The position numbers and the translations under genes are program-made. This document shows positions 1 to 25,206 of a stretch of 44,954 bases of DNA, piece by piece. Within the stretch, counting starts at the first letter, position 1. Each line of letters starts with the position of its first letter. The notes under the pieces were generated by a model. The model did no database searches. It was not told the DNA's origin and saw only the letters and a list, made by a program, of their open reading frames with translations. The DNA comes from Candidatus Nanohaloarchaea archaeon (GTDB taxonomy: Archaea > Nanohalarchaeota > Nanosalinia > Nanosalinales > Nanosalinaceae): NCBI GenBank assembly GCA_042218325.1, contig JBDGRE010000004.1, positions 1-44,954 of the forward strand, in the 5' to 3' direction.

Positions 1-42
1 CGCCCCCTCAGGACTGTGCACCAACAGTTCAGGCAAACAGGG
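1..42 (+). repeat. att-like site copy 1 (tRNA 3'-end core + 30-bp arm)
   Basis: CGCCCCCTCAGG matches the tRNA 3' end (24977-24988) and is followed by ACTGTGCACCAACAGTTCAGGCAAACAGGG; 30/37 identical to copy 2 and 26/37 to copy 3 without gaps. Confidence 0.85.
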
Positions 43-132
43 CGAAAATTCGTATATAATTAAGTGATGATATCACTCCCTACAGTAAAGGTATTAAGTG
101 TGTACGTAACATCTATTGCCGTGGTCACTACA

Positions 133-282
133 ATGCCTGAAGCCGTCAAGAAATCTGATAGAAGTATAGAAGAGTTAATGAAAGGAATGAAAGAAGGAGC
201 GAAAGATATGATTGAGGGAAATACTGAGTCCGATAACTCTAAGATTAGAGATCAGATTGAAAAATTGAGAGAGGATCTCTGA
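133..282 (+). CDS. Small charged protein (49 aa), possible antitoxin
   Basis: ATG at 133 within the 64..282 ORF; convergent with and overlapping the 3' end of the RelE-like gene. Confidence 0.4.
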   Translation: MPEAVKKSDRSIEELMKGMKEGAKDMIEGNTESDNSKIRDQIEKLREDL

Positions 283-583
283 TTTTGCCCGTAAGCTTCT
301 TTGACTCTTTCTTAGTCAATACTCTCCAGCCGTATATAGCATCATCCTCCAGTTCTTCTACATATTCTCCCTCTATAAACCAGGCTCTGTAATCCCTGCC
401 AAGATTCATCTGCAGAACCGGATTCATATTCCCTGAGAGAAACTTGTCGAAAGCCTGTCTCGGTGTAGCACCTAAATCCAGATTCTTTTCAACAGCATCT
501 TTCTTACTCATGTAGGTCTCAACAACCTTATCAGGAAGAGCAGCTAGATCCTTCATAGCCCTCTCAGTTACCTCGATCTCCAT
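245..583 (-). CDS. RelE/ParE-like toxin-fold protein
   Basis: N-terminal MEIEVTERAMKDLAALP and GRDYRAWF resemble RelE-family patterns; 112 aa. Confidence 0.6.
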   Translation of the reverse strand: MEIEVTERAMKDLAALPDKVVETYMSKKDAVEKNLDLGATPRQAFDKFLSGNMNPVLQMNLGRDYRAWFIEGEYVEELEDDAIYGWRVLTKKESKKLTGKIRDPLSIFQSDL

Positions 584-658
584 AATCTGAAATCAGACTA
601 AATCGTTAATATATCAACAGGTAGGCGCCCGGATTTACTAACTATGATTTCATTTAAA

Positions 659-695
659 CCTCAGGCATATGCACCAACAGTATAGGCTAATAGGG
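659..695 (+). repeat. att-like site copy 2 (7-bp core CCTCAGG + arm)
   Basis: CCTCAGG-CATATGCACCAACAGTATAGGCTAATAGGG aligns ungapped with copies 1 and 3. Confidence 0.8.
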
Positions 696-708
696 ATTTC
701 GGCATCAT

Positions 709-2235
709 TTAGTTGAATAGTCCCTTTAGACTTCTTTTTACACCCTCAATCTTGATTAGCAAATGTAAGAGAGCTAAAAGAGGTAACGCTGCAAGTAAAG
801 CAAGCGCCCGGCTTCCTCTACCTTTGTCTTCATCCTCAAGAGTTGCTACCGTTTTCGATAGGGCTGATTCCAGCGAAAGCCTAGAACCACCATATGAAGT
901 AATCTCGCCGGCAGAATTTGATTCGAGTTCTTCAATCGATTTCTCAATGGCTTCCTTATACTCTTTATCTTCTGCTTCAGCCTTCAGATCTTCAAGTTTT
1001 TTCTTGGTTTTATTATCGCCGAGTCTACCAATAACTGTTGGCGCATTTAGCTGGATATATCCCGACTCATCTTTAAGACTTTCCACGAGTTTCGGCATTG
1101 CTTGCGTTACTTCATCACTTGGTATATCATACCGTTTGAAATCAGAAAGCTCACATAACGCACCCAGGGCATTCTCTCTAACCTTTCTATCTTCATCTTT
1201 AAGCCTCTTAACTAGAGGAATGAATACTCCAACATCATCTCTGAACCGAAGTGCAGAAGTTACTGATCTTCTTACCTCCTCGGATTCCTGATCGAGGTTG
1301 TCCAAAAGCACATCGGTCGATGAATCAGTCTCAATTCTCTCAAGTGTAAAGGCGGCTGACGATTTGACCTCCGAACTTTGATCATCCTCTAGAATATCGT
1401 CGAGCTTATTGACTATCTCATCGCTACCGTAGGAAGCCAGCGTCCGTCCGATCGCTCTCCTAACTATCTTACTTTCCTCTGACTTCATGGCGGATAACAA
1501 CTGATCCCTGACATTTTCCTCTTCAAGCCCTTTAAGCGAACAAGCAGAGACTTTTCTCAGCTCCTGAGACTCCGTATGTTCAAGCTGTTCAATTAAAGTC
1601 TCAACCACTGTTTTCCTATCTCCTTTGTAAAGCCTTCTCAGAGATTTAATCAAAGTCAATCGAAGATCGTCGGGAGTAGAGCCATCAGAGATAATCCTAC
1701 TTATAGAGGTAATCGCTCTATCATCGCCTCTTACAGCCAGAAGAAACGCCGCCCTTTTCTTGTCCTGCTTGCCGCCCTTCTCAAGGATATCCAGCAACTC
1801 TTCGTTGTCAAGGTTTTCCCAGGATTCGTGTTCGTCTGGCTCTCTAAGGATAACTTTATCTGGATTTAAGTAAAGTGCGTGCTTCGTCCAGCAGTCAGAT
1901 CTTTCAGTACCTATTTTGTGACCGTTCTTGCATTCTGTATTCTCTCCCTCTAAACCGTCAACACCACAGCAACCTACTACTTTATCGTAATCTAGCCTTG
2001 TATCTTTAGCATCTCTGAGATTGATCACGAAGCAATGTTCCTTATCATCATAGAAATTGTATTTGTCATCTCCTTCAGCCTTGATGAAGAACCCTTCTGG
2101 CAACAAATCCTCTCCATCCGATGCATCCTGAATTCTGTAATTCGGGAGAGTTTCATCCATCAAACCTCTGTCTTCTAATTCAGCTACATCCTTGGAAACC
2201 GGCGCTCCACATTCCTCGCATTTGAATACAGCCAT
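709..2235 (-). CDS. HEAT (PBS-lyase-like) repeat protein with N-terminal Cys/His metal-binding domain and C-terminal hydrophobic anchor
   Basis: CEEC...GCCG...CKNGH...DCW N-terminus; repeated VRxxAAxxLG-type helices; C-terminal ALALLAALPLLALLHLLI. Start placed at MAVFKC (alternative 2259). Confidence 0.8.
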   Translation of the reverse strand: MAVFKCEECGAPVSKDVAELEDRGLMDETLPNYRIQDASDGEDLLPEGFFIKAEGDDKYNFYDDKEHCFVINLRDAKDTRLDYDKVVGCCGVDGLEGENTECKNGHKIGTERSDCWTKHALYLNPDKVILREPDEHESWENLDNEELLDILEKGGKQDKKRAAFLLAVRGDDRAITSISRIISDGSTPDDLRLTLIKSLRRLYKGDRKTVVETLIEQLEHTESQELRKVSACSLKGLEEENVRDQLLSAMKSEESKIVRRAIGRTLASYGSDEIVNKLDDILEDDQSSEVKSSAAFTLERIETDSSTDVLLDNLDQESEEVRRSVTSALRFRDDVGVFIPLVKRLKDEDRKVRENALGALCELSDFKRYDIPSDEVTQAMPKLVESLKDESGYIQLNAPTVIGRLGDNKTKKKLEDLKAEAEDKEYKEAIEKSIEELESNSAGEITSYGGSRLSLESALSKTVATLEDEDKGRGSRALALLAALPLLALLHLLIKIEGVKRSLKGLFN

Positions 2236-2396
2236 TCTGTAAGTAAACTTACATCGCATCTTTTTGTACCTATAGAAAGCTTCAATCTAAAGGAGTGTAT
2301 TTAGAGGTAAAAAGTCTATTCAAGATTTTTATTAACTTCGTATAAGATTTTGAATATATTTAAGCGTTTATATCCGATATAAAGAGTTTTAAGAGC

Positions 2397-2439
2397 CCGC
2401 CCCCTCAGGGATGTGACCGTTCTGTTCGGGTAATCAGGG
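2397..2439 (+). repeat. att-like site copy 3 (best attR: 16-bp tRNA duplication + arm)
   Basis: CCGCCCCCTCAGGGAT identical to 24976-24991, followed by GTGACCGTTCTGTTCGGGTAATCAGGG. Confidence 0.9.
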
Positions 2440-2442
2440 ATT

Positions 2443-2811
2443 TTACTCTTCCTTCTCTATATTTTCAACTAATCCGTCTAACTTTTCTATTTCTTCTTCA
2501 ATAGATTGTTTCTTTTCAGTTGAAACTTCTTCCTTTAGAGAATGTAGAATATCAATAGCTTCTTCCTCGTCTTCAACCGTCATTAATTCATAGAAAATAT
2601 TTGCAGCTTCTCGTATCTTCACCGCCGCCTCTGTAGGCTTGCTATCATAATCACGCTTTGCTTCCTCGAGTTTAGCTTTGCCCTTCCAGAATCTAGTATC
2701 CGCGTCACTATCTGCTTTATCAGCCGCCTCCCTGAATTTCTTCGCTGCCTCTTTATGTCTGCCTTTATCCTTTAGTTTTTCTGCTTCTTTATAGACATCT
2801 TGATCGCTCAT
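2443..2811 (-). CDS. Small TPR-like helical protein
   Basis: KEAEKL...AAKKFREAADKADSD helical repeats; paralogous to 14778..15068. Confidence 0.7.
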   Translation of the reverse strand: MSDQDVYKEAEKLKDKGRHKEAAKKFREAADKADSDADTRFWKGKAKLEEAKRDYDSKPTEAAVKIREAANIFYELMTVEDEEEAIDILHSLKEEVSTEKKQSIEEEIEKLDGLVENIEKEE

Positions 2812-2910
2812 AATCCAGAACTTGTAATGGAACTATTTATTGTGTGGGCTATTCTCCATCAAATAGTATTTCAATTAGATTTTCATGACTGGAAAACAAA
2901 TACTGTATAC

Positions 2911-3051
2911 ATGTCTGAAGAAGATTCAGGACGGAATGAGTGTAAAGGTGTTGGCCCTAAATCACCTATTATCAGACATTATAGGAAAGCACTGAATCCT
3001 CCAGAGTCCTGGCAAGAAGAAAATAGAAAGTGGTGGAAAGAAAAAGATTGA
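2911..3051 (+). CDS. Small hypothetical protein (46 aa)
   Basis: ATG at 2911 within the 2800..3051 ORF; charged composition; no motif recognised. Confidence 0.3.
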   Translation: MSEEDSGRNECKGVGPKSPIIRHYRKALNPPESWQEENRKWWKEKD

Positions 3052-3070
3052 ATTTTACACCTTAGTTACT

Positions 3071-3298
3071 CTATAACGCCGTTATGTCTAGTCCAAACTC
3101 TTGGTTCATCCAGGTTACTGGAGCAGTTATCTCTGTTCCGAAATCGCCTGCTGCCAATATTATACGGGGTTTATTGTCAAGTTCAAATTCAGCTTAGCCG
3201 TCTTCACCGATTGTTACTTCCTTTCCGGATCCACTTAGGTGCTCTCGGAATTTTTTGCCTACCTCCTCCGGCTGAAGTCCATGTACCTTTATCCATAG
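3071..3298 (-). pseudogene. Fragment of a NucS/DUF91-like endonuclease-family gene with internal stop
   Basis: Manual translation ...TIGEDG*AEFELDNKPRIILAAGDFGTEITAPVTWMNQEFGLDITAL* resembles the IRMLFVADEIPSELRSIVEFLN segment of 15457..16554; TAA at 3194-3196; no start codon seen. Confidence 0.55.
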
Positions 3299-3299
3299 T

Positions 3300-3617
3300 G
3301 AAGATGAGAGATACAAGATTATAACCTGGGCTGATCTGAAGAAAAGAGAGGTCAAGGAGACGATTTACCCTATAATTGCAGAATTGGCTAACCAGCTGGC
3401 TCTAAAAATAGAGCAGGAGTATGAGGACTCAGAAGATGTTTTCGGCCAAATAAAGGAAGAGACAATAGGTCGATGGTATTATGATAAGAAGAAAGGTCAG
3501 CAGCTACATATCGCCGAGTACCTGGATATGACAGAGATAAACAAGTCATCAGGTCGAACGACGAATTGCTTGAGGAATGCGGATTTAATTCTAGAAATCA
3601 GCTGGACAAGCAGTTAG
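3300..3617 (+). pseudogene. Truncated gene fragment (unknown family)
   Basis: Open frame EDERYKIITWADLKKREVKETIYPIIAELANQLA... has no ATG and starts back-to-back with the previous fragment. Confidence 0.35.
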
Positions 3618-3759
3618 GCAAGATTCAGAGATTACGCGATAAAGTAATGCACGCCAATAGCACGTTAATAAGAGATAAATCCGATATACAGAATCTTCTT
3701 GATCGGGTTAATATGGCTGATAGGATAGTTCGTAATCTCGAGTAGTCCAGTATGGAGAA

Positions 3760-5589
3760 TTACGCCTTTTCAGGCCATCTATCTTTGATTCTGTTTATCA
3801 TGTCTTCCTCTCTGTTCCTTATCTTTTCTTTACTCCATTGGTCGTTTTTGAATACTTTCTCAAGCATCCGGAATTTGGATCCGGCGAAGTTATCTTTCTT
3901 TTCTTCAAAGGTGTCGTTTTGATTGGAGGAGTTATCTTCGGGAGTCATGAGAGCCAAGTTCCCTAACCGGTGAGTATTTTCCTCAATTACTTCTTTCTTT
4001 TCCTCTTCCATGTCTTCTGAAGGTGTTTGTGGCCATATATGTTCGACCGAGAATCTATCATCTTTATTGGTTTTTATCCGCTCTGCATCAAATGGTATGT
4101 CCTCTTTTTCATGCTCTAAGGATGTTTCGTAGGTGTAGAGGAGGAACCTTAGTTCGTCTAGCCTGTTGGAACCAGCATAGTACTCATACACATCCTGATT
4201 CTGTAGCACTTGGTCGATATCATCATTGTCGCAGTATTTACCGATATATTGGTCTAGCTTCTCTACTACGCCCTCAATATCTTTAGGTTCGATATTATCC
4301 GGGACGTTCCTCTTTTGGTTATAGTAAAGCTGTCTTGCTAATGGGTAAGCTCTGGTTCTACCTGTGTCGGCTGATTTCTTCTGGATAATGTAAGTCCTTA
4401 CTATGAATGCCTCGATTCTTTCAAATAATAGGCACAGCTTCTCTCTGCTTATCTGCCCATTCTTGTACTGGTCGTAAGCCGTGATAATTAGAGGATAGAA
4501 GTTGGCTAATCTCCCCGCAACAGATAACTTCTCTAACCTAGTTCTGATTTCTTCATCATCTATCTTCTCAGGGTTAGTGATATCCTTCAATCTATCAAAT
4601 ATAGTTTGGAGTTCGTTTGTGTACCGAAGAATCTCTTCGGGGCTATCTGTACGGCGGAAATAAGTCTTCAAATGGTCTAAATGATCCTGATAATACCTCT
4701 TGTCTCGTCCTGTAGTCCAGTCTGGATTCCACATGATGAAGTGGTACCGCTGGACACTGTCTTCATCTATCTTTTCAGAAACGTCTTCTATAGAGTTGTA
4801 GATTTCTCTGAAATCTTCCTCTATCCTTTCGATTTCTTGTTCTGCATTTTCATCAGATATTAGCGAGATTCTGTGCATAAGGTAGCTTTTCGTTATCTCT
4901 AAATCGGTCAATCTCTTACCTCGGTCGTTCACTGTCTGGAATATGCGGGCTGCTTCGCTCTTAGATTCTACTGCATAGGATAGAAGCGGCAGCTCTTTCA
5001 CAGTTTCAAACAGTTTCTTATAGAAATCCAGCTCGTCTTCTACATCTATGCTTTCAGGAGGTCCTTGAGACAGTTTTTCCCTAAAGAATTCTTTTGTTTC
5101 ATAAAGTCTTCTCTGAGAGGAGGAATCAAAGTTTGCCTTGGACATAGCGTCCTCTTTTCTATTATTCTTATGGTCATACATTACCCCCTCCAATATTATG
5201 TTCTTAAAGAAGACTTTATCGTTACCTAAAAGCTCCAGCTTCTGGCTTCCATAGTCAGTTATATATTGCCCTGTTATTTTCTTGGAGGTAGTTTCATCGC
5301 CTTTCTTCTCGAACTGTCGCTGAAGTTCGAAGAGGAGAATTAGAAGAGTGGTCATCCTTTGTTGACCGTCAATCACTTTCTGTACTTTCTCTCCGTCTTC
5401 CTCGTCTTTATTAAGAAGAAAAGCACCTATGTAGTGATCTCTATCCATTTCAATAGCTTCAATTAAATCGTCCCAAAGATCTTCTCTCTGCTCCTTTTCC
5501 CAAGAATAGTTTCTCTGATACTTCGGAATTTTGAATAAATTGTCTCCCGTTATTAGCTTGCTAAATCTTTGTTTATCCGAAGAAGCCAT
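3760..5589 (-). CDS. GmrSD-family (DUF262 + DUF1524 HNH) type IV restriction endonuclease
   Basis: IPKYQRNYSW, VIDGQQRMTT, IFQTVNDRGKRL (DUF262); EHIWPQ...LGNLALM...N (DUF1524). Confidence 0.92.
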   Translation of the reverse strand: MASSDKQRFSKLITGDNLFKIPKYQRNYSWEKEQREDLWDDLIEAIEMDRDHYIGAFLLNKDEEDGEKVQKVIDGQQRMTTLLILLFELQRQFEKKGDETTSKKITGQYITDYGSQKLELLGNDKVFFKNIILEGVMYDHKNNRKEDAMSKANFDSSSQRRLYETKEFFREKLSQGPPESIDVEDELDFYKKLFETVKELPLLSYAVESKSEAARIFQTVNDRGKRLTDLEITKSYLMHRISLISDENAEQEIERIEEDFREIYNSIEDVSEKIDEDSVQRYHFIMWNPDWTTGRDKRYYQDHLDHLKTYFRRTDSPEEILRYTNELQTIFDRLKDITNPEKIDDEEIRTRLEKLSVAGRLANFYPLIITAYDQYKNGQISREKLCLLFERIEAFIVRTYIIQKKSADTGRTRAYPLARQLYYNQKRNVPDNIEPKDIEGVVEKLDQYIGKYCDNDDIDQVLQNQDVYEYYAGSNRLDELRFLLYTYETSLEHEKEDIPFDAERIKTNKDDRFSVEHIWPQTPSEDMEEEKKEVIEENTHRLGNLALMTPEDNSSNQNDTFEEKKDNFAGSKFRMLEKVFKNDQWSKEKIRNREEDMINRIKDRWPEKA

Positions 5590-5650
5590 GATTTACCGTT
5601 CTCTATAACTCTTTTTAGTCGTTTGGCTACTATTTCTTCTCCAAATTATC

Positions 5651-7243
5651 TTAGTTACTCTGAACAGGTTTCTCCTCTCTGCTTATATCTGAAGATGCGA
5701 GTTTGATAGTTTTCCCTTCTTCAATTTCAGGTTGATTATAGGTTAATTTCCTGAACCAGTCCGGTTTCTCTGTATGGATTGCGAGGAGAGAGCTTGGATT
5801 AATCTCCTCTATCATTTCTTTGATTTCTTTCTGTGACATGTGTCCCGAGGCGTGGGCTTTACGCATCTGAAGGTTGAAGTGGTTCAGCCAGTTGTGGACG
5901 CGTCGCTGTTCTATTTCCATTTCCTGGTTGAACGGCTCTGTCCTCGACCATAAGTACATGCCTCGTTCCGGTTTGAGGTCTATTAAGTCCTTTAGGCGGT
6001 AGTAATCGGTGTATAAAACGTAGTTTTCGAGGTTGTCGCAGATGTCCAGCGGCGTCACAGTATCGTCCCGCATCACCAGCTCTCTTTCCCATCCACTTCT
6101 GTAATCCTTCTTGACTAATCCATCATGGTTGGAGTCGTCGATATCGATTTCATCCAGACGTTTCCATTCGCCGCTCGGAGTTCTAAACTTGTGCATCAGC
6201 ATACCCCATCCTTTCTGGGGTGCAAGTATCCGTATATGAGGGCTGTCAACAGATAGGTCGTCCCAGGGCAGTAACCCGTTTTCCTCTAGTTCCTTAAGCA
6301 TATGTGCCTGCCAGGTTCGCACAACATACTGGCGGTCGTTGCCTTTCGCAGCTCTCACAACAGACCGCATCCTCTCTAGATCCAGGCGCGGGTGGTTGAC
6401 AAATACTCCGTCATTTTCCTCTCCTATATACCACTGTAGCTTCTCTCTCACCTTTTCTTCTGGAGGAATCTCTTCCGAGTTCCCGACATTGGTTCCTTCT
6501 GTGATCAGATAGTCGGGTTCGAAATTTCTCGATGCCTCAATAAAATTCTCTGTGTGATGGCTTTGGTAGCCGTGTAGACGCAAATCTCCTGTATAGGCTA
6601 TACAGTTCTGAGGTGTTTCAATATGGAATCCGGCCGCTCCCGGTAAGGAGTGGTTGACTCTGTAACATGTTACCTCTGTGTCTCCTATGGATACAGTCTC
6701 CTCGTTTCCTATAGTGTTTATATCCCGTTGCTTGTAGATACTTCTATCAATAGACTTGATGTCACGGTCGAACTTGGTCAGTTCATCCTTTCTGGACTTC
6801 CTCCTGAGATGGAACGATTCCTTCATTTCCACGAACTCGTCGAAGGTATAGCTGCCGGTATCCTGGACAACATCCATCATGGTCGCGGTTGTAGGAGTGC
6901 AGTAAATCGGTATATCGCTTCGGAGAAAGTGGACATATCCGATGTGATCCATGTGGGCATGCGTAAGGAAGACAGCATCAAAAGCAGGTTCCTCCTGAAC
7001 ATCTTTTCCAAGGTGCTTGAGGTAATCCTTTCTGTATAGCCCTTTGATGTCAGGTAAGAGCCCTAGCTCCAGGAAGTCTTCGATACCGTGAGCCTTTCTG
7101 GGATTCAAGAACTCAGAGAAATAATCGCTTTCTGCGCCAAAATTCTTACCGAAATCAAACAGAAGACGGGCATTATCTGTTTCTAAATCGATTATATTCC
7201 CGCCTATCTCCCTGACGCCGCCGTAGAAAGTGATGTTCTCCAT
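5651..7243 (-). CDS. MBL/beta-CASP metallo-hydrolase, RNase J-like
   Basis: GGVREIGGN, THAHMDH, HSLPG, YTGDLRLHG, HASGH and IHTE motifs. Confidence 0.88.
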   Translation of the reverse strand: MENITFYGGVREIGGNIIDLETDNARLLFDFGKNFGAESDYFSEFLNPRKAHGIEDFLELGLLPDIKGLYRKDYLKHLGKDVQEEPAFDAVFLTHAHMDHIGYVHFLRSDIPIYCTPTTATMMDVVQDTGSYTFDEFVEMKESFHLRRKSRKDELTKFDRDIKSIDRSIYKQRDINTIGNEETVSIGDTEVTCYRVNHSLPGAAGFHIETPQNCIAYTGDLRLHGYQSHHTENFIEASRNFEPDYLITEGTNVGNSEEIPPEEKVREKLQWYIGEENDGVFVNHPRLDLERMRSVVRAAKGNDRQYVVRTWQAHMLKELEENGLLPWDDLSVDSPHIRILAPQKGWGMLMHKFRTPSGEWKRLDEIDIDDSNHDGLVKKDYRSGWERELVMRDDTVTPLDICDNLENYVLYTDYYRLKDLIDLKPERGMYLWSRTEPFNQEMEIEQRRVHNWLNHFNLQMRKAHASGHMSQKEIKEMIEEINPSSLLAIHTEKPDWFRKLTYNQPEIEEGKTIKLASSDISREEKPVQSN

Positions 7244-7300
7244 TAAAGAAAAGTTCGAACAGGTGCTGTAAAAAATGACCGATAGATTAAATCTAAAGAT

Positions 7301-10300
7301 TTACTTCTCTTCTATAGCCATCCAGCAAATCAGCTGAATTTCTTCCTTATCTATAGGATCTAGAGGTTCTGGGGGTTCAAATGGTTGAAGTCCCAACTCC
7401 TCGATTTTATCCAATAGCTCTTCAGATTTCTCCATGTTTCCTAGATTTTCATCTTCGTATATATCCCTCAGTTCTCTTTCATATCGACGTCCATACGGTG
7501 CTTCTACTGAATCTATTGCTCTCTCCAGCTCAGACTGACTAATATCTTCAGGAGGATTCTCTCTAAGATGCTCGGCAACCTGACGGAACAAAGGTCTAAT
7601 CTCGGGTTGTCTGTTTCTAGGGTCTGTTTGTTCCTGCCAATCTTCATAGATATCGTCTCTCGCCTTCTTCCAAGCATCATATATTCTCTCTCGGCTTTCA
7701 CCATCTAGGCTTCTATCTGTTTCTTCATCGCACTCGATATTCTGTAGACAGGTTAGTGTATCTGATACAATCTCGCCATCGGATTTTGGTATAAATCGAG
7801 TGAAAAAGTTGTCTTCACCTACTTTAGCAGCGAAGAAGTATCCCGGATTCTCTCCTTTATATCCTGATCCTGCTGCCCAAGGCAGGGATTTAATATCATC
7901 TTCTCTTTCCTGTAATCCTTTTCTTAACTCTTGCCTATATTCTTCTCCCGAATAGGTGGCTGAGTCCTTATCCTTGTCAAACGCTTCCTCTTCTTCCTCT
8001 CTAATCTTCTCTATTTGTTCTCTTTTCTCAGCAAAATTTTGTTCTACAGTATCAGAATCTGGTATTACTTCATTTTCTAACCCAACAGATTTAGCAGCTC
8101 TAGTTATCTTTTTCCTTACCCTATTCTCTAGAGTCAGTAGCTCATCTAATCTATCTTCTGGAAAAAATGTATGTGCGAATATTTGTGAGTGCGGAGAATT
8201 GATTCTATCGATTCGACCGTTTCTCTGGACCACTCTCATTGGATTCCAAGGCAGATCATAGTTCATTACATGTCTTGCATCTTGTAGATTAGCTCCTTGG
8301 CCTAACACATCTGTAGCTACTAAGATATCGAATTTGTCATCTCCTGTCGGAGAATCTGTTGACTCAGGCGCGAACCCTTGTACAGCTTCTTTTTTGGTGC
8401 TTGCGTCTCCTTTAGCTTCATTACTAGTTATGCCTGCTATTCTATCTTTGTACCACTTTAGCTCCTCTTCGCTTTCTACAGCAGTTTCTAGATAATCTAT
8501 AATTCTATCAACTGTGTCTTCAAAGTAAGAGAAAATCAGTATTTTTCTATTTTGTCTAAATTCTTTATCTCCGGAAGCATCTTCTTCAGCCTCCTTGACA
8601 ATATCCTTTAGTTTCTCCTTCATTTTTTCTAGTTTGCAGTCTTCTTCCAGAGATACGCTTTCTGCTCTGTTTCTCCATCTTCTCAGAATTTCTAAATCGT
8701 TCTCTAGATCATCCTTAAGTCTTGATTTATCTACGTTATCTCCTAGTTCTCTCACTTCTTCCTCGCCGAATACTTCTTCAAATGCTTCGTCGCTATCTGC
8801 CTCAATCCATTCATCTATAGCGTTTGGATCGGGGAACTTCCCATTTTCCAGAAGCTCTAATGAAGCGTTATACTGATCTATCATGCCTTCAACCGTATTT
8901 ATGAAGGCGTCAAGTGATGATTCAAATCTCTTGAGAAGACCAGTTCTCAGGAGCCCTGCCAGAGCAATTTCAGAGTGGTCAATCTCCTTATCTTTCCTGT
9001 ATTTAGAGGGCATATAACGGGCCAGCGACAGCTCCGGATCTTCTCTTTCCCCAGCTGCTAAACCATCTGCAACATCTTCGAAGAATTCATCGCTGATAAT
9101 TCCTTCAAAGTCATAATCTACTCTTTCCGGATTCGTTTCCGGGAACTTTATTCGTATAGTATTTCCATTAACCTCTATCTGTTCATTCTGATAATTTTTC
9201 TTGACAAAACTACGTGTTCTCCTTACTGTCGTCTTATCCAAGACATCGAATAACATCTCTGGACTTAAGTCAGAAGGATCCTCGGATTGTGCTTCCTTGA
9301 ATTTCTCCTTAAGTGAAGGTATTCCTTCATTAGCGAATTTGGCATCATTCTTGACAAAGTAATTTAGCTGGTAGTATAGATCCCAGAGAGAGTTGTTTAC
9401 AGGGGTAGCAGTTATTAGAACTAAATCTTTTGGAGGATCCCCTCTTAGAAGGGTTCTTAGTGCATGGGCTTGATCTGTTCCTGGATTTCTGAAGGCATGA
9501 GCTTCATCAACTATTACGAGCTGATATTCTTCCTTATCCCTGTTGAGATATTCTCTTTCACCTCCTAGTTGTTTTTCGTTTCGTAGTTCAGCATAGGAAA
9601 TAGTGTCAAATTGGACTTGCCATTCTGACCTTTTCTTTTCCCACATTCCTTCTTTGAGATAAGCCGGAGCTATTACTAGAGCTTTCTGTCGGTGTTCATC
9701 TACTGCTTCTCGAATAAGATCTCCTGCGATATAGGTTTTTCCTAACCCTACACTGTCTGCCAGTATAACGCCGTTATGCTCATCAAGGAATTTCTTGGCT
9801 CGAAACTTACCATCATTTTGGAAAGTTGTTAGTTCTATCTTATCTCCTCTCTGTTCCTCCTCATCCCTAATTTCATCCTTATACCGTTCCCACAAGACTC
9901 TAAGATAAATCAAGTAAGGATCATACGGCTCGAATCTCTCCTCATACAGCGAAGCTAAATCATATGGCTCGCTCCTCTCCCATAAGTCTTCGAACCAATC
10001 TCTTACCTCTCTAGTTACTCTTGGGTCGTATTGCCCTAGATTAAGTTCTAAATTTGTATTGAGACCTCCTCCTGTAAAATTGGATGATCCTGCTATGACA
10101 CCTTCTTCTACATTACTGAAAAGGTAAGCTTTTCCGTGAAGAAACTCTTCTTCAAATCTCCGTACTTCTACTTTATCGCTTCTTAAAACCTTAAGCATAT
10201 GTTTTAGGTTACTTTCAACTTCTTCTGAAAATCCTAGAAGATCTCTATCCTCTTCTAAGTCCTGGTCTAATTTCTGAAGTTGATCCTCTATCTTTTCAGC

Positions 10301-10579
10301 TTTGTATCTATCATCTCTCGGTTCACCTGGTTTCCTCCATCTTCTACGATCTTTATTCTCTGGTGTGGCTCCAATCAAAATCCGGACTTTATCCAATTTA
10401 TCTAAACTCTGAGCTATAGAGAAAAATCCCTCTGGGTTGAAGTAACCTGTGGCTATATCGAGTTCCGGCGGCTCCTCCAGTCTATCATCAAGATATTCGA
10501 TATACTCATTTAACGCATTCGCCAAAGTGTTCCCTTCTTGGTTATCTACGAAAGTCGGTTTATCAGATAAATCCGGCAC
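7301..10579 (-). CDS. PLD-nuclease + SNF2-like SF2 helicase fusion
   Basis: PLD LHGKAY...GSSNFT...NLELN; Walker A ADSVGLGKT; DEAH; TATPVNN; QRNGRIDRI. Confidence 0.92.
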   Translation of the reverse strand: MPDLSDKPTFVDNQEGNTLANALNEYIEYLDDRLEEPPELDIATGYFNPEGFFSIAQSLDKLDKVRILIGATPENKDRRRWRKPGEPRDDRYKAEKIEDQLQKLDQDLEEDRDLLGFSEEVESNLKHMLKVLRSDKVEVRRFEEEFLHGKAYLFSNVEEGVIAGSSNFTGGGLNTNLELNLGQYDPRVTREVRDWFEDLWERSEPYDLASLYEERFEPYDPYLIYLRVLWERYKDEIRDEEEQRGDKIELTTFQNDGKFRAKKFLDEHNGVILADSVGLGKTYIAGDLIREAVDEHRQKALVIAPAYLKEGMWEKKRSEWQVQFDTISYAELRNEKQLGGEREYLNRDKEEYQLVIVDEAHAFRNPGTDQAHALRTLLRGDPPKDLVLITATPVNNSLWDLYYQLNYFVKNDAKFANEGIPSLKEKFKEAQSEDPSDLSPEMLFDVLDKTTVRRTRSFVKKNYQNEQIEVNGNTIRIKFPETNPERVDYDFEGIISDEFFEDVADGLAAGEREDPELSLARYMPSKYRKDKEIDHSEIALAGLLRTGLLKRFESSLDAFINTVEGMIDQYNASLELLENGKFPDPNAIDEWIEADSDEAFEEVFGEEEVRELGDNVDKSRLKDDLENDLEILRRWRNRAESVSLEEDCKLEKMKEKLKDIVKEAEEDASGDKEFRQNRKILIFSYFEDTVDRIIDYLETAVESEEELKWYKDRIAGITSNEAKGDASTKKEAVQGFAPESTDSPTGDDKFDILVATDVLGQGANLQDARHVMNYDLPWNPMRVVQRNGRIDRINSPHSQIFAHTFFPEDRLDELLTLENRVRKKITRAAKSVGLENEVIPDSDTVEQNFAEKREQIEKIREEEEEAFDKDKDSATYSGEEYRQELRKGLQEREDDIKSLPWAAGSGYKGENPGYFFAAKVGEDNFFTRFIPKSDGEIVSDTLTCLQNIECDEETDRSLDGESRERIYDAWKKARDDIYEDWQEQTDPRNRQPEIRPLFRQVAEHLRENPPEDISQSELERAIDSVEAPYGRRYERELRDIYEDENLGNMEKSEELLDKIEELGLQPFEPPEPLDPIDKEEIQLICWMAIEEK

Positions 10580-10581
10580 TA

Positions 10582-13500
10582 TTAATTCACCTCAACTTCA
10601 TCAAAGAACTCGAGAGTATCATGCTTTTTCGACTCCCAATACTCAGGAGGATTACTAACCTCATGGAATGTGTCAAATATAGCTTCTAAATGTTCTTTTT
10701 TCAAACCGTATAATTTAGCCACTAAGGCGTCTAACTCTCTTATTTTCTCACGCTCCTCTTCCTCCTCTATTGGGCCACATTCGACTCCAACTCTGTTAGC
10801 AAATTCTTCATACTTATCGCTCTTACATGCTAGTCTCGCGGAGAGCTCTGCTATCTCCTGTTTTATTTCAGAATCATCTCCTGGCCTCGGTACAGGGAAT
10901 GCGTTTAGAATAAAGTAATTCAAGTTTGCTTCAACGAACCTCCGCGCATACCAGTCTAGAGGCACAGAATTAAGTATTCCCATTAGATAAGCCATATCAG
11001 TTTCATCTCCTCTAGGCCAAAGGAAGTAAGGTATTGCGTTAGTTATGAACGTATTTTTAGGAATCAGAGAAGATACTACAGAGCGTAAGTTATCTACTCT
11101 AGCGGCATTCCTGACACAAACCCTGTAGTTTTTACATGGAAGCTTACTTCTACTATGTATCCAATTTTGGGAGAAATGAGATTTCATTTTGCGTGATCTC
11201 TCTCTACTTTCCTGAAGATAATCAAGCATTACATCGGGATCAGACCATCCAAATCTTGAACCTCTGTCCATCACCCATAACTCTGTTCCTGGATAATTGG
11301 TTGAAGAACCATCAAATACAGGCCAGTAATCATCCTCTGGTGGTTCTTCTGTAAGATGGATTAGTCGGCCATAGTCATCATCTGTTTTGTCGGTACTCTC
11401 ATCTAGTTCCCTATAAGGCAAAGCTCGCCATTCGCCTTCTTCATCATAATCAAGTTTGGGAACACTATTCAAAATCTCAAATGCTTCCTCCACCGTTTCC
11501 TTGTTATCCAAAAGGACAGGAAGATTGGGGAATGAGTAAACATTTGTCCACTTTTTGGCATCGCTTACCGGAAAACGGTACGGTTCTTTTCTGTTCTCGT
11601 ATTCCTCTTTACTAGTGTAGGGGCCTCTTATAGGGATCTCCGTATTCTCATCAGGTTCTCTCTTCGTGAATGAGGAAAGTGCTGCTGTATAGACAGGGGT
11701 GATGTCAAAGATCCATCTATCCTTGTTTTTCAATATTGTCAGGTCCTCGATTTCTGCTTTTTCCAGTATTTTTTCTCTAAAGTTCTTTGATCCCTTAGCG
11801 AAGAATGCATTTCTTGGTAGAACAACGCCTATTGATGCTTCGGAAGTCGATAAGCTCCAGAATCGCCAATAGAATGCTTTATACATGTCGGGATCTCCGG
11901 TCCCCATTCCTGGGAATGGACCTCCTTTCAATATTTCCCTTCTACGTTCTTGCTCTTCCTTTTCCTCTTCAAATTTTTCTGCTAAGTCAGGTCTTTCCTT
12001 TTTCAGGTTCTCTATTACCTCTCTTTTCTGACCCTCGGGCATGTCAGTAAGGCCTGGCCGATACCTCGTGAAGAACGCATCTTCTTCTGCTATAGTCTCC
12101 TCCCAAGGAGGGTTTCCTAGGATAACATCGAAGCCTTCGCTTTCTCCTCCGAAGATTTCAGGGAATTTTATAGGGAAGTGAAGTTGGTTTGTGGCTTCTA
12201 ATGTTTCCTGAGCTAAACTATACTCTTGAGTGTCTTTCAGATCCTCTATATTCTTATTTCGTATATCATCTGCATTTATTTCGTTATTTACTCTTGAAGC
12301 AGCTAAGATGTCTAAGAGAGCTTTGAAGTCATCAAGCTGTTTTTCTATCTCAGCTTGGGTTTCTCTTGCTTCTACTACTTCCTCTGCATGAGCCTCAGTG
12401 ATACTTCCCAGTTGCTCGACTTTCTCTTTTGCATCCTTTATGTGGTCTTTCTCCTGCCCATAATAAGCTGCTAGTGTATCATCCTTTATCTTGAGGATTT
12501 CTTGAGCCTCTTCCATTGTCCCTATACCCGACAATGAGTCTCCTGTAACTAGATTGTGATTAAGAAATGTTAGAGGAAGACCAGGGACAAAGGTATGAAT
12601 CCACATTGAAAGCCTTGCTAGCTCTGTAGAAAGAGGATTTAGATCTACGCCGTAGACGCATCTACGAGCTATCTGTCTTCTCAGGAGTTGTGATCTTTCT
12701 ATGTCCGGTATGCTTTCTTCGTTTTCGAAGGGTTCCTTTGCTGCTTGTTGTAGGTTGTCTAGTTCTTCTTCTACTTCTGGAAGAGGTCTTTCAGCAAGAT
12801 AAGCTGAGAATTTAGATTCTATTCTGTCTACTGCACCTACTAGGAAGTGGCCTGATCCCATTGCGATGTCTGCTACTCGAAAGTCAAAGAAGTTTTCTGC
12901 TGCTTCTGCGTCACTCATTTCGTCGAGTTCATCTAAGTGTTGTTCGATTGCAGGATCAAGTGAGTGGTCTAGCAGATGTTCGACGAAAATTGATTTCGTA
13001 TAGTAGGTTCCCGTTGCTTTTCTTTCTCCCGACGTACCGTGGAGATATATCTCTCCCTTTTTAATTTCTGCATTCTCTTCGTCTTCTACAGGGACATATT
13101 GCTCTTCTCCATCACTTTCCTGTATCCCGAGATGCTGGTCGGCAACTGATAACTCAGATTCTAGTAGTCCTTGATAAATTGTTCCGAAATCTCTGACTCC
13201 AATATTTCTGAAGTCTACCGGTCCTTGATATCCTTCACTTGTCTTATCAATCAAGAGATTCGCAAGTATAGGTCCAAATATATCGTTACTCAGCTCTAGC
13301 TCAGCGAGTTTTGCGCCAGCTTCAGAAACATCTGGATCGGAAGACAACAGCTGGCCATCATATTCCGGAACTCCCCATTCACTCTGACCGTCATGAATTG
13401 CATTGGCAAGCCTTGTAATGTCTTCCCAATGGCTTGTTGAACCAGGATCAAACCCAGAGCCTTCAGTTCTTATCTGGTTCAGCTCCTTAGCCTTCTCCTT

Positions 13501-14664
13501 TAGTGAACGTCTGTCATATCTCTCATTTCTTTTCCTAGGCAAGTATCCTTCGTCCTCCGCATAAGCGATGAATAATAATCTGTAAAGAAGGATAATTGAC
13601 ATCTCATAAGTCTCATCTAACTCTTCCCTTGACGGATCCTCTAAGTCTCTTGCATCAGCTATTGCCTCTGCGAGATCTGGAACCACATCATCGTAAATTC
13701 GTTCTCGGAGTCTTCCTCCCAGATCTGTTGCGTAGTCCTCTGAGTTCTGTATTATTTGCTCTAGACTTCCTTCGTCTCGTAATGCTTCTGGAGAGAACAT
13801 TAGTGATAGATAGCCGGCGTCTTCTTCTGGAAGTAGAGCCGAATTAACTTCGACATATGTATCTGTTCTACCTCTCGAACCTAGACCCTTGTCAGGATCG
13901 GTTGTGTAGAGGCGTAAAGTTTTTCCTGAACTGGCGATTACCCAATCGACATCTACGGCATCTTCAGCTTTGTTCAGAGCGTAGTTTACGGGAGTATTGT
14001 TACTGAATCTTTCCTGGCTAATTTCAAAATCTTCATCTTCTTCTAGAAAAATTGCGACAGCAGAGTTCCTATGACCGTCCTTCAGGACAAAACCTTTTCC
14101 GTTCTCAAGTCTCTCTACGTCGTAACCTAATTCTTCGATTAGTTCTCTTCCCTCTATTCCTAGTAGTTCTTTAGATTCTTCTGTCGCTGAACTCCAATCG
14201 CTTCGGTTTTTCACACCGGTCTTCAGTTCGTGTGTCGCTACTAATCCTTGATTTCTTATACCAATGAGTTCGTCATCAATTTGTTCTATAACATCCCAGA
14301 GAAAATCCCTAGCAGCATGTCTATTTGGTTTTTCTAGGGCTTCAGTACATATTCTTGTAATTTGATCTGAATCCACAGATTTCCTTATTGGAGGTTCATC
14401 CCCGCTGGCACCGCCTGTAGGACCACAAATAGCTGCCCGATCACCATAAAGAACTACTAATAGAACTGGTGCAGCTCTTCTACCCTTTCTCTCTTTCCAA
14501 ACCTTGGTAAGTTCTTCTTTACGTGGCTCTTCCTCAGATCTTCCGACAGCAACTTCAAGGGCGCTTGAACCCTCTCCTATATAGAAACCTGTCGTATCAA
14601 TATTTCCTTTGCTTACTTCCCATTCTCTCCACGAATCTTGGAATTCAGATAGAAATTCACTCAC
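10582..14664 (-). CDS. Type IIG/Eco57I-like adenine DNA methyltransferase with target-recognition domain
   Basis: RKATGTYYT, DIAMGSGHFL (motif I), YGVDLN, DVILGNPPW (motif IV); C-terminal TRD-like region; 2 bp from the helicase gene. Confidence 0.9.
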   Translation of the reverse strand: MSEFLSEFQDSWREWEVSKGNIDTTGFYIGEGSSALEVAVGRSEEEPRKEELTKVWKERKGRRAAPVLLVVLYGDRAAICGPTGGASGDEPPIRKSVDSDQITRICTEALEKPNRHAARDFLWDVIEQIDDELIGIRNQGLVATHELKTGVKNRSDWSSATEESKELLGIEGRELIEELGYDVERLENGKGFVLKDGHRNSAVAIFLEEDEDFEISQERFSNNTPVNYALNKAEDAVDVDWVIASSGKTLRLYTTDPDKGLGSRGRTDTYVEVNSALLPEEDAGYLSLMFSPEALRDEGSLEQIIQNSEDYATDLGGRLRERIYDDVVPDLAEAIADARDLEDPSREELDETYEMSIILLYRLLFIAYAEDEGYLPRKRNERYDRRSLKEKAKELNQIRTEGSGFDPGSTSHWEDITRLANAIHDGQSEWGVPEYDGQLLSSDPDVSEAGAKLAELELSNDIFGPILANLLIDKTSEGYQGPVDFRNIGVRDFGTIYQGLLESELSVADQHLGIQESDGEEQYVPVEDEENAEIKKGEIYLHGTSGERKATGTYYTKSIFVEHLLDHSLDPAIEQHLDELDEMSDAEAAENFFDFRVADIAMGSGHFLVGAVDRIESKFSAYLAERPLPEVEEELDNLQQAAKEPFENEESIPDIERSQLLRRQIARRCVYGVDLNPLSTELARLSMWIHTFVPGLPLTFLNHNLVTGDSLSGIGTMEEAQEILKIKDDTLAAYYGQEKDHIKDAKEKVEQLGSITEAHAEEVVEARETQAEIEKQLDDFKALLDILAASRVNNEINADDIRNKNIEDLKDTQEYSLAQETLEATNQLHFPIKFPEIFGGESEGFDVILGNPPWEETIAEEDAFFTRYRPGLTDMPEGQKREVIENLKKERPDLAEKFEEEKEEQERRREILKGGPFPGMGTGDPDMYKAFYWRFWSLSTSEASIGVVLPRNAFFAKGSKNFREKILEKAEIEDLTILKNKDRWIFDITPVYTAALSSFTKREPDENTEIPIRGPYTSKEEYENRKEPYRFPVSDAKKWTNVYSFPNLPVLLDNKETVEEAFEILNSVPKLDYDEEGEWRALPYRELDESTDKTDDDYGRLIHLTEEPPEDDYWPVFDGSSTNYPGTELWVMDRGSRFGWSDPDVMLDYLQESRERSRKMKSHFSQNWIHSRSKLPCKNYRVCVRNAARVDNLRSVVSSLIPKNTFITNAIPYFLWPRGDETDMAYLMGILNSVPLDWYARRFVEANLNYFILNAFPVPRPGDDSEIKQEIAELSARLACKSDKYEEFANRVGVECGPIEEEEEREKIRELDALVAKLYGLKKEHLEAIFDTFHEVSNPPEYWESKKHDTLEFFDEVEVN

Positions 14665-14777
14665 GTTGATAGACCCTTTATTTTTACGATCTCGGAGTGA
14701 TTTTTATTTTAGTTTCTATTAGTAGAAAGCCAAAAGTTATAGAGTTTTTTCTTAGAATAGAGTATACAAGAAGCATA

Positions 14778-15068
14778 ATGTCTGTAAAACACCAAGAATC
14801 ACGTAAGGAAGCTGAGAAATTGAGTAGTAACGAGAAATATAGTAAAGCAGCTGATAAGTTCCGAGAAGCTGCAGACCATGCAGAGAGTGATGAAGATAAA
14901 ATATATTATTTCTCCAAAGCTCTTTACGAGGAAGGAGTTCTAGCTAAAAATGAGGGCAGAGCTAAACTTGCTAGACGGAAACTTCAGAACGCTTTAGATA
15001 ATTTCACGTATCTAGAAGTTACAGAAGAGATAAATAAAGCAGAAAAAGCCCTTGAAGAGATTCAATAA
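14778..15068 (+). CDS. Small TPR-like helical protein
   Basis: ATG at 14778; KEAEKL...AADKFREAADHAESD; paralogue of 2443..2811. Confidence 0.7.
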   Translation: MSVKHQESRKEAEKLSSNEKYSKAADKFREAADHAESDEDKIYYFSKALYEEGVLAKNEGRAKLARRKLQNALDNFTYLEVTEEINKAEKALEEIQ

Positions 15069-15096
15069 AGCGAACTTCATTTTTTGTAGTAAAGAG

Positions 15097-15366
15097 TCAG
15101 GAAAATTCCTGCCAGAGTTCTTTACCTTTCTCAGCAATCCTGTAATACCGATTTCGGTTGTCTTCCGGATTCATAATCTCCACTAATTCCTCCTCTTTTA
15201 GGTCAGTAATTCGTCTAGAAACTGTTTCACGTTGAACCTTAATCTCTGATGCTATATCCGTAGGCCTCAAAGCCTCTCCCTCCTTATAGAGTAGTTCTAT
15301 AATCTTCCTTCTAGTCGGTGAGCGATCGATGAATGCCTTTAGCCGATAGAGTTCCTCCTCTTCCAT
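15097..15366 (-). CDS. ArsR/MarR-type winged-HTH regulator
   Basis: SPTRRKIIELL...RPTDIASEI...TVSRRITDLKEEELVE...RYYRI. Confidence 0.85.
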   Translation of the reverse strand: MEEEELYRLKAFIDRSPTRRKIIELLYKEGEALRPTDIASEIKVQRETVSRRITDLKEEELVEIMNPEDNRNRYYRIAEKGKELWQEFS

Positions 15367-15456
15367 GCAACATTTGCGTGCCGAGTTGGATAAGGGAGAG
15401 AATGTAGGGTTGCGTGATTGCTTTAATAATACTTTGAAAGCAAATATTGCTCAAGG

Positions 15457-16554
15457 ATGGATGGAGAAGGCAAAATATTCCTGATACGAGACGGCGAACT
15501 CCGAGAAATGAACGAAGATACGTACGAGGAAGAGTCTCTACTTCAAGAGCAAATTGCGGAGTACAGAAGCCTGCTCGCTGGCGAACAAGTAGACCCTGAA
15601 AATCCTCGTAGATGGCTACTTATCGAACGTGAAATCAGCGTACCCGACAGCGAAGAAAGCGAGGGTAGATGGTCTCTGGACCACTTATTCATCGATCAAG
15701 AGGGAGTTCCAACACTGGTGGAAGTCAAACGTAGCCAGGACACCAGGAGCAGGAGAAGGGTTGTGGCCCAGATGCTTGACTATGCGGCAAACTCGGCAGA
15801 ATACTGGACTCCTGACGGTATAAGAGAACGATTCAAAGTTCAATGCGAGTCGCAGGGAGAAGATCCAGAAGACCAGCTTGCCGAATTCTTACCCGATGAT
15901 AAAACTCCGGAAGAGTTCTGGGAAGAAGTCAAGACCAATCTTGCAGCCGATAAGATACGAATGCTTTTCGTTGCCGACGAAATACCTTCTGAACTCCGCA
16001 GCATAGTAGAGTTCCTGAACCGTGAAATGGAGACAGCGGAAGTACTGGCTGTGGAAATCAAGCACTATACGGGAGAAGGAGAACAGGCGCTAGTACCGAG
16101 AGTTATCGGCCAGACTGAACAGGCCAGGCAAAAGAAGCAGTCAAGCTCACGTCGTAAATGGGATGAAGAATCCTTCTTTGAAGACGCCAGAAAAAAGCTA
16201 TCAGAAGAGGAGTTGACGAAGATTAAGAAGTTATACCAGTTCAGCAGGGAAAATGCCGACACAATTGACTGGGGAACAGGCTCTCAGAACGGCTCTTTCA
16301 ACCCAAAATGGGAAGAACTCTCCGATCGCTCAATTTTCACCGTCTACAGCAATGGGAATATTACACTTAACTTCGGGTGGCTTGTGGAGGATAAGGCTGT
16401 CGAGTTCAAGCAGGAATTTGCTGAAGAGCTAGGTAATGCAGAAATCGATATTGAGGTTCCTGACAGCCTCGACGATTCAATGTCATATCCTATTGACGAA
16501 GATATTGACGGGCTTATCCAATGTCTGGAAAACACACTAAATAGACATTGTTAG
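15457..16554 (+). CDS. NucS/DUF91-like PD-(D/E)XK endonuclease-domain protein
   Basis: EESLLQ, IERE, SLDHLFID, LVEVKR, QMLDYA motifs. Confidence 0.8.
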   Translation: MDGEGKIFLIRDGELREMNEDTYEEESLLQEQIAEYRSLLAGEQVDPENPRRWLLIEREISVPDSEESEGRWSLDHLFIDQEGVPTLVEVKRSQDTRSRRRVVAQMLDYAANSAEYWTPDGIRERFKVQCESQGEDPEDQLAEFLPDDKTPEEFWEEVKTNLAADKIRMLFVADEIPSELRSIVEFLNREMETAEVLAVEIKHYTGEGEQALVPRVIGQTEQARQKKQSSSRRKWDEESFFEDARKKLSEEELTKIKKLYQFSRENADTIDWGTGSQNGSFNPKWEELSDRSIFTVYSNGNITLNFGWLVEDKAVEFKQEFAEELGNAEIDIEVPDSLDDSMSYPIDEDIDGLIQCLENTLNRHC

Positions 16555-19523: not shown

Positions 19524-19525
19524 GG

Positions 19526-20038: not shown

Positions 20039-20229
20039 TTCTCGCCTCCAGAGCTTACCGTTTTAACTTTCAGCTCCAGTTTTGCCCCACAGTTGCCGCA
20101 ATCTCCGTATGCTGCCTCGGGTAAGGTGAGTCCGAATCCACACTCAGGGCAAGGTATACCGGGGATTTCATGGTGGTCGTCTAACCATATATCTTTGAGA
20201 TCCTTAGTTTCCAGTTTCATTTTTAGCAC
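20035..20229 (-). CDS. Small Zn-finger protein
   Basis: CPECG...CGNCG; 4-bp overlap with the ParB gene. Confidence 0.7.
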   Translation of the reverse strand: MLKMKLETKDLKDIWLDDHHEIPGIPCPECGFGLTLPEAAYGDCGNCGAKLELKVKTVSSGGEK

Positions 20230-20232
20230 CTC

Positions 20233-22941: not shown

Positions 22942-22954
22942 GTGCCCAGCTTGG

Positions 22955-23632: not shown

Positions 23633-23640
23633 GAGAACTA

Positions 23641-25122: not shown

Positions 25123-25206
25123 CTGTAGAAAGGCAGGTGGTGCGAGTTTTAAAAAATACTCAGAGAGCTGTATGGGTTTTTAACTCTTGTTTTCCCGGAG
25201 ATAGTT

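Follow-up and report, generated by a model that had tools for sequence, protein, structure and literature searches.

Three similar short sites at the left end of a nanohaloarchaeal contig open with letters from the 3′ end of a tRNA-Arg gene and divide the DNA into small segments of one or two genes, beside a larger element that carries a tyrosine integrase. They raise the question of whether the array is a gene-cassette system of its own or the result of repeated insertion at a tRNA. An earlier note on this DNA took the first view, proposing an integron-like array whose single-gene cassettes the neighbouring integrase would deposit, capture, or shuffle. The window, by which we mean the whole stretch of 44,954 nucleotides (nt) that was analysed, is the entire contig G000:C30 of a 1.07-Mb genome in 35 contigs, and the runs holding this contig are labelled salt lake metagenome. 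With a probability of about 0.8, we read the array as integrative elements of a single att family that were stacked by successive tyrosine-integrase insertions into the 3′ end of tRNA-Arg(GCG). The att nature of the sites and their tandem arrangement were supported, and the integron-like capture mechanism was not.

Three att-type units at tRNA-Arg(GCG)

The integration target, tRNA-Arg(GCG), lies on the minus strand at 24977-25122 and is the single gene for that tRNA in the genome. It was recognised by an Rfam tRNA match of 48.2 bits and by ARAGORN with introns allowed, the predicted intron being 74 nt long and following position 37; in its default mode, ARAGORN missed the gene. Many of the tRNA genes that ARAGORN predicted across the genome carry long predicted introns (48-143 nt). 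Such intron-bearing genes are missed by default tRNA finders, and integration targets can therefore stay hidden. The tRNA also stands at a boundary in guanine-cytosine (GC) content, which is 0.58 for 25123-44954 compared with 0.40-0.49 across 1-24976. By segment, it is 0.40 in E1, 0.42 in E2, and 0.45 in E3, the three stretches delimited by the sites described next, and 0.58 in the remainder of the contig.

A repeat search of the window found a single repeat family, the three 42-nt members of which stand at 1-42 (c1), 654-695 (c2), and 2398-2439 (c3), with spacings of 653 and 1744 nt. The earlier note had described them as three 37-bp units (6-42, 659-695, and 2403-2439) with identities of 30/37 and 26/37 to the first, and both the repeat search and the alignment confirmed this (c1-c2 30/37, c1-c3 26/37, c2-c3 22/37). 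In an ungapped scan of the 35 contigs on both strands, the best unrelated match to any unit reached 26/42. The CCTCAGG heptamer alone was not enriched in the window (12 observed vs. 8.3 expected, with at least 12 in 13 of 100 shuffles), and its nine other occurrences there showed only 13-20/37 identity to a unit.

Every unit has the same layout on the plus strand, namely letters of the tRNA and then a 30-nt arm belonging to the segment on the right; this layout identifies the arm as the element side of three related attP sites. Unit c1 (1-42) begins with 12 nt of the tRNA-Arg 3′ end (CGCCCCCTCAGG), continues with the 30-nt element-side arm, and forms the distal attL-type junction of E1. In c2 (654-695), CCTCAGG alone remains of the tRNA core (7 nt, with TTAAA instead of CGCCC), and the arm equals that of c1 at 23/30 positions. 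The core that c3 has in common with the tRNA-Arg 3′ end is 15 nt, or 16 nt when one flank base is included. Counted in this way, c3 (2397-2439) consists of a 16-nt direct repeat, CCGCCCCCTCAGGGAT (2397-2412), followed by the arm, and is the distal attL-type junction of E3. An exact match to 2397-2412 at 24976-24991, also on the plus strand, is the tRNA-proximal, attR-type copy of this repeat.

Four units could be compared when one from a relative (G008, described below) was included, and their invariant columns are CCTCAGG..T..G..C.....GT...GG..A..AGGG. The arm holds three CAGG-type repeats, at columns 4, 25, and 33, which by their pattern are probably protein-binding sites. Scanning for further units with a position weight matrix built from the four brought up no additional, weaker unit within the window. 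The units are attL-type junctions in which a tRNA-derived core is joined to the conserved element-side attP arm of related integrative elements. Their derivation from the tRNA-Arg 3′ end as att-type sites, as first proposed in that note, was borne out by the tRNA calls of Rfam and ARAGORN and by cores of 7-16 nt. Its view that they mark off tandem segments of 653 and 1744 bp beside an integrase-bearing element likewise held.

That element, E3 (2398-24976), is 22.6 kb long, is flanked by the exact 16-nt repeat (2397-2412 and 24976-24991), and has its tyrosine integrase adjoining the tRNA. It shows the marks by which tRNA-targeting integrative elements are recognised, which are a tyrosine recombinase at the edge, insertion at the tRNA 3′ end with a distal repeat, and foreign GC content. 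E3 is absent from the same site in G001, a genome of the same genus, despite syntenic flanks.

The favoured explanation would account for this arrangement as follows. At each integration, the tRNA would be completed anew by the core copy that the element brings, and older material would be pushed outwards, the crossover probably falling inside CCTCAGG. Because the tRNA is on the minus strand, an incoming element would land to the left of the gene, with the rebuilt tRNA on the element's right and the displaced tRNA end plus the attP arm on its left. The far border would keep the displaced end (CCTCAGG and at most 16 nt) fused to the arm of the element. Units c1, c2, and c3 would then be far-border junctions, and their common 30-nt arm would be the part conserved on the integrase side in related attP sites. 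E3 would be the most recent and complete element, with an integrase, a replication/packaging-like module, and defence cargo, and E1 and E2 would be the remains of earlier elements or small integrase-less derivatives. The process would be the known one of tandem accretion (integration, decay, and renewed integration), here in a poorly studied host.

Reuse of the site in relatives and the integrase of E3

The unit pattern was present in two of 50 family genomes, three times in G000, which holds the window, and once in G008, which belongs to another genus. Among 185,579 species genomes, it occurred in one further record only, that of G008, and there were no matches in JGI metagenome contigs or IMG/VR viral contigs. 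The G008 unit is identical to c1 at 29/37 positions and lies 1.16 kb from tRNA-Arg. Between the two is one amidohydrolase-family gene (L031, G008:C30, 3291-4346), the stop codon of which abuts the tRNA 3′ end. In G008, which is 81% complete, no match to the window integrase was found at E ≤ 0.001. A two-mismatch match to the unit in G023 was rejected as chance; its identity is 24/37, its flank is not tRNA-like, ARAGORN placed no tRNA nearby, and the match is absent under a stricter pattern.

The same tRNA has been used by other elements as well. G001 carries other genes beside its tRNA-Arg and no unit within 15 kb. Elements of 7.3 kb in G067 and 8.2 kb in G003 sit at the same tRNA with an integrase adjoining it in both, and these two have in common an arm of their own beside the distal repeat, unlike the window arm. 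Gene-less scars were also found. A second exact core lies 76, 90, 102, and 161 bp from the first in G002, G063, G003, and G035, respectively, which is too close for genes, and two exact 15-nt cores on one contig occur in six of 50 family genomes. The distances between tRNA 3′ repeats form a size continuum, from 76, 90, 102, and 161 bp through 0.65, 1.16, and 1.74 kb to 7.3, 8.2, and 22.6 kb. One tRNA-Arg gene is a landing pad that has been reused across genera and scarred by old insertions, and this reuse explains why many family assemblies break there.

Contigs of the family often start or end at or inside tRNA-Arg (G014:C11, G023:C54, G021:C23, G067:C81, and G070:C104). These frequent ends suggest population-level variation at the site in many lineages.

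The integrase of E3 (23641-24915, minus strand; 424 amino acids, aa) matches PF00589 over residues 129-298 (E 1.2e-11). The gene starts at a distance of 61 nt from the tRNA 3′ end and reads away from the tRNA, and the C-terminus of the protein carries a CxxC...CxxC zinc ribbon. The alignment shows K, R-II, W, and Y conserved, but Thr in place of Arg-I. This Thr is common to the window integrase, a paralogue on contig C5 (G000:C5:863-2143, 46% identical to it), and a copy in G027 (L007, G027:C101, 62% identical and with one internal stop), whereas more distant relatives and XerA have Arg. The same three have Lys where the distant relatives and XerA have His after the second Arg. The wording of the motifs differs (TPGELL vs. 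ARPGELL / LRVSEL; YxRKS vs. RH[ST] in distant relatives), and all three proteins also have Cys-rich inserts and a zinc ribbon at the C-terminus. These three are the only close members in 70 genomes of the class, and no relatives were found in the phage collection, IMG/VR, or the JGI metagenomes.

A second island of the same genome (L047, G000:C5:1-17436; ~17.2 kb, GC ~0.40) lies between tRNA-Ala(tgc) and, near C5 45-58, a 14-nt repeat of the 3′ end of that tRNA. The paralogous integrase stands there at the end far from the tRNA, which is the opposite of the E3 layout. Elsewhere, two neighbouring intron-less tRNA-Arg genes (tcg and tct) lie at G000:C3:763-918, on a 13.7-kb low-GC contig (0.45) that is possibly a viral or plasmid contig within the bin.

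E3 comprises a cargo half (2440-15100, GC 0.41) and a core half (15101-23640, GC 0.49). On the minus strand, the cargo half encodes a 122-aa TPR-like protein (2443-2811), GmrSD (3760-5589), a metallo-beta-lactamase-fold nuclease-like protein (5651-7243), a PLD-SNF2 helicase (7301-10579), and an Eco57I-type methylase/type IIG-like protein (10582-14664); on the plus strand, it encodes a 123-aa paralogue of the 122-aa protein (14697-15068). The core half begins with a 365-aa unknown protein on the plus strand (15457-16554). The following genes, all on the minus strand, encode a terminase-large-subunit-like protein (16551-18107; phrog_2, 4.8e-33), a helix-turn-helix protein (18104-18559), a C5 DNA methylase (18552-19544), a ParB-N nuclease-like protein (19526-20038), and a 669-aa unknown protein (20612-22621), of which the C5 island holds a paralogue. 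A 261-aa unknown protein is encoded on the plus strand at 22847-23632. E3 has a mosaic look, with the GC step from 0.41 to 0.49 near 15.1 kb and, at 14697-15068, the paralogue of the gene at its left end. In run X3, which comes from another study, pieces at 2.0-14.5 kb were identical and pieces at 15.3-19.0 kb differed by 10-23 letters per ~260-360 nt. With its predicted GmrSD, type IIG-like methylase, PLD-SNF2 helicase, and RelE-fold toxin (in E1), the locus shows the uptake of defence and other foreign DNA by a 1-Mb symbiont-type archaeal genome.

Small segments, the break at unit 1, and alternative readings

Segment E1 (43-653; 653 bp counted from unit to unit) holds a 112-aa gene with a predicted RelE/ParE fold on the minus strand (245-583) and a small convergent open reading frame on the plus strand (64/136-282) that overlaps its 3′ end. 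The AlphaFold2 model of the 112-aa protein had a mean pLDDT of 79.5, and its top Foldseek matches in the PDB were nearly all RelE, YoeB, YafQ, HigB, ParE, or RelE-domain proteins. These matches were weak (best 1wmi_A, E 2.3e-3, TM 0.51/0.63; none at E ≤ 0.001), and the protein had no Pfam or NCBIfam match and a RelE-like PHROG match at E 0.008. No co-transcribed antitoxin gene was found in E1, which offers only the convergent reading frame and nothing upstream within the segment; the arrangement of the pair is unlike the usual toxin-antitoxin operon layout. The 112-aa gene is present in 10 of the 50 family genomes. The sole gene of E2 (696-2397; 1744 bp) encodes a 516-aa HEAT-repeat protein on the minus strand (709-2259; PF13646, 1.8e-31) with a Cys-rich N-terminus and a hydrophobic C-terminus, for which no homologue was found in 49 family genomes or the phage collection.

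With E1 between c1 and c2 and E2 between c2 and c3, both small segments have att-type flanks of the neighbouring element's family. Profile searches found no integrase or transfer genes of their own in them, and the lack of an integrase anywhere in 1-2397 agrees with what the earlier note had observed; the distances of 13 and 3 nt that it gave between two genes and the adjoining arms were correct too. E1 and E2 are integrase-less segments, probably leftovers, and similar in structure to a cis-mobilizable element (CIME).

What lies beyond c1 was seen from another contig of the genome. C25 opens, in reverse complement, with the 12-nt core of c1 that also begins the window, and its genes (DUF192, NMD3, eIF-1A, and RIO kinase) are syntenic with the tRNA-Arg neighbourhood of G001 and G008. 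The core overlap and the synteny therefore give the main order as chromosome, c1, E1, c2, E2, c3, E3, tRNA. The earlier note was right that the window starts at a copy, yet that start is the end of the contig and not a cut through it; its thought that the array may continue leftwards holds in so far as there is some variation to the left of c1. Between the DUF192 gene and c1 lie ~700 bp of low GC (0.38-0.43; L048, G000:C25:1-750) with one orphan gene for a 120-aa membrane protein and no recognisable att on the far side. This stretch is plausibly an older, eroded remnant.

The overlap of C25 with C30 consists of the 12-nt core only, compared with a usual contig overlap of 55 nt in this assembly, and no contig in the bin overlaps either of them by 55 nt. 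Such an overlap would be expected at a site of the de Bruijn graph with two alternative left and two alternative right partners. All four runs (X1-X4) were examined as assembled contigs, which show presence and not absence, and X2-X4 are patchy over the stretch. A second assembler's contig comes from X1, the probable source run, and is not an independent sample; it also ends exactly at base 1 and runs past base 20000 with 0 differences (expected reach ~25013). A 48-nt junction contig, a length that we take to be 2 × 30 − 12 on the assumption of a Logan word length of 31, has a depth of 10.7 vs. 17.6 for the main contig and adds 18 further letters to the left of the window.

These data imply that the population varies at the unit 1 junction. 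The contig is unbroken at c2, c3, and the tRNA in both assemblies, and the variable partner therefore lies outside contig C30; the simplest candidate is an additional segment with att flanks that only some members of the population carry. Excision between c1 and c2 was rejected as the source of the variation, since the contig would then be expected to start at base 6. Excision between c1 and c3 or between c1 and the tRNA was rejected as well, as it should produce breaks at 2398-2409 or 24977-24988, which are absent in both assemblies. The only other overlap below 55 nt is one of 17 nt, by which C7 and C2 are joined start to start, in inverted orientation; it may be another recombination or inversion junction.

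Several points weigh against a stack of decayed elements. The right ends of E1, E2, and E3 align with nothing in common beyond the core, and no trace of an integrase pseudogene was found in E1 or E2; for these reasons, we infer rather than observe that the two decayed from full-size elements. The 7-nt core of c2 could be due to erosion, or to a small element entering an existing attL. An integrase-less, low-GC islet of 2.35 kb at tRNA-Glu(ttc) (L049, G000:C23:15160-17586), with a ~50-nt exact 3′ repeat, encodes, besides a membrane protein of 362 aa, a paralogue of the RelE-fold protein of E1 (59% identical), again with a small convergent reading frame, and on this account the small segments may be more than debris. 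Judging from its residues, the integrase is not assured to be active, as Thr replaces Arg-I in it and in its two closest relatives. No excision product, such as a cassette-sized deletion or circle, was present among the assembled contigs, which cannot show rare forms.

The alternative that survives best takes E1, E2, the tRNA-Glu islet, and the G008 segment as non-autonomous mini-elements. These would be satellite- or CIME-like circles of one or two genes with a minimal attP, moved in trans by the resident integrase and able to enter an existing attL. We consider this unlikely, though it has more in its favour than the other rivals. All junctions have exactly CCTCAGG in common, and the overlap region of a tyrosine recombinase is typically about that long. 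Unit c2 is readable as the left half-site of E1 joined to the arm of E2, with no tRNA damage needed if E1 entered the attL of E2; the right ends, however, are unrelated. The tRNA-Glu islet, which also lacks an integrase and has a long exact repeat of its tRNA, does hold a paralogous RelE-fold gene, but the E1 gene pair is also found in G011 and G020 at 78-80% DNA identity over 151/162-584 only, the similarity stopping at the gene borders, with no unit beside it or anywhere in those two genomes. At c1, contigs from two assemblers end exactly where the 12-nt core begins and ends, and the lower depth of the junction contig points to alternative partners there; the absence of a break at c2, c3, and the tRNA suggests, however, that this variation is not E1 or E2 leaving alone. 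Units in only two of the 50 family genomes, and gene-less scars that show plain decay at this tRNA, also speak against mobile mini-elements. We are equally doubtful that the att-bounded modules form an active, trans-mobilised class in nanohaloarchaea, inserted into tRNA ends or attL by an integrase clade without the canonical Arg-I. If this were true, tRNA-Arg would be a platform where genes are captured and slowly replaced, and the break in the assembly graph at unit 1 would reflect exchange that is still going on.

An integron-like platform, in which single-gene cassettes, each with a recombination site of its own, would be captured and shuffled by the integrase at a fixed place beside the tRNA, has very little left to recommend it. 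In its favour, similar sites border each of the small segments of one or two genes, the gaps between gene ends and arms are 3 and 13 nt, and one segment has a toxin-like gene. The integron-integrase models TIGR02249 and NF011946, however, gave 27.2 and 20.2 bits, far below their respective cut-offs (265 and 435), and the best NCBIfam match of the integrase was archaeal XerA-like, also under its cut-off. No attC-like hairpin was found; RNAalifold on the four units gave four pairs (CCCT/AGGG) at −1.25 kcal/mol with no compensatory changes. Gene orientation is mixed, with both strands used in E1 (convergently), the minus strand in E2, and the G008 gene reading away from its unit, and the E1 pair exists elsewhere (G011 and G020) without its site. 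All collections scanned yielded the three units here plus one more. The arm is accounted for as an ordinary attP arm, the G067 and G003 elements carrying a conserved arm of their own, and the scars of 76-161 bp at the same tRNA fit decay and not cassette capture. The capture mechanism of the earlier note found no support in the model scores, the attC fold, the gene without a site, or the orientations. Chance similarity or an assembly artefact, for which the unenriched heptamer and the start of the contig at a unit might be cited, can be dismissed with near certainty, because the identity between units is far above the best genome-wide chance match, a fourth unit stands at the same tRNA in another genus, and the second assembler's contig from the probable source run shows 0 differences over 1-20000.

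The locus is most likely a case of ordinary genomic-island growth at a tRNA and not an integron-like gene-cassette system. Stacked att junctions are expected to show just such a tRNA-fragment repeat with a conserved arm of non-tRNA origin, and this pattern should not be taken for a new cassette system unless independent movement is shown.

Comparison with known systems

Like integrons, the window has short gene-bearing segments between similar recombination sites beside a tyrosine recombinase, and genes of toxin-antitoxin type are among the cargo of chromosomal integrons. Unlike integrons, it has no IntI-type integrase, attC hairpin, or uniform orientation, its sites are tRNA-derived, and one of its genes occurs elsewhere without a site. 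Archaeal elements and proviruses that integrate into tRNA genes (pNOB8-type, with non-partitioning integrases) keep an intact integrase beside the tRNA and are marked by a direct repeat of the tRNA 3′ end. E3 is like them in both respects; set against these archaeal families, the integrase clade here is distinguished by Thr at Arg-I and a C-terminal zinc ribbon.

Excerpts of one paper on nanohaloarchaeal viruses and satellites treat no such arrays. Three published systems, compared here on the strength of excerpts from each report, come closer. In the model for streptococcal integrative and conjugative or mobilizable elements (PMC5704250), an element decays to an att-flanked, integrase-less remnant, or CIME, and accretion follows. 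E1 and E2 resemble such a CIME as att-flanked segments without an integrase, and differ from that model in that conjugation genes are lacking here and the right-hand core of E1 is down to 7 nt.

Prochlorococcus tycheposons (10.1101/2020.12.28.424599) are tyrosine-recombinase elements at tRNA genes, with neighbours separated only by a partial tRNA. In their islands, newcomers displace older elements outwards, and degenerated remnants, extra partial tRNAs, and defence-type cargo are found (10.1101/2020.12.28.424599). The window has the same kind of tandem at a tRNA site with a tyrosine recombinase, partial tRNAs, probable remnants, and defence-type cargo. The host here is of another domain, and mobility has been shown by experiment for tycheposons, whereas the present elements are known from sequence alone.

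The ssrA islands of Dehalococcoides (PMC3146451) form a tandem series downstream of a single small-RNA gene, and each is bounded by a ~20-bp repeat of that gene's 3′ end. Every repeat is accompanied by a conserved non-target motif, and some islands have no integration module and were proposed to be cis-mobilizable (PMC3146451). The present array has the same tandem build, target-end repeats, non-target motif, and integrase-less members. The Dehalococcoides islands belong to a bacterium, a transfer-messenger RNA gene, and a serine recombinase, in contrast to the archaeal, DPANN-like host, the tRNA-Arg gene, and the tyrosine recombinase of the stack described here.

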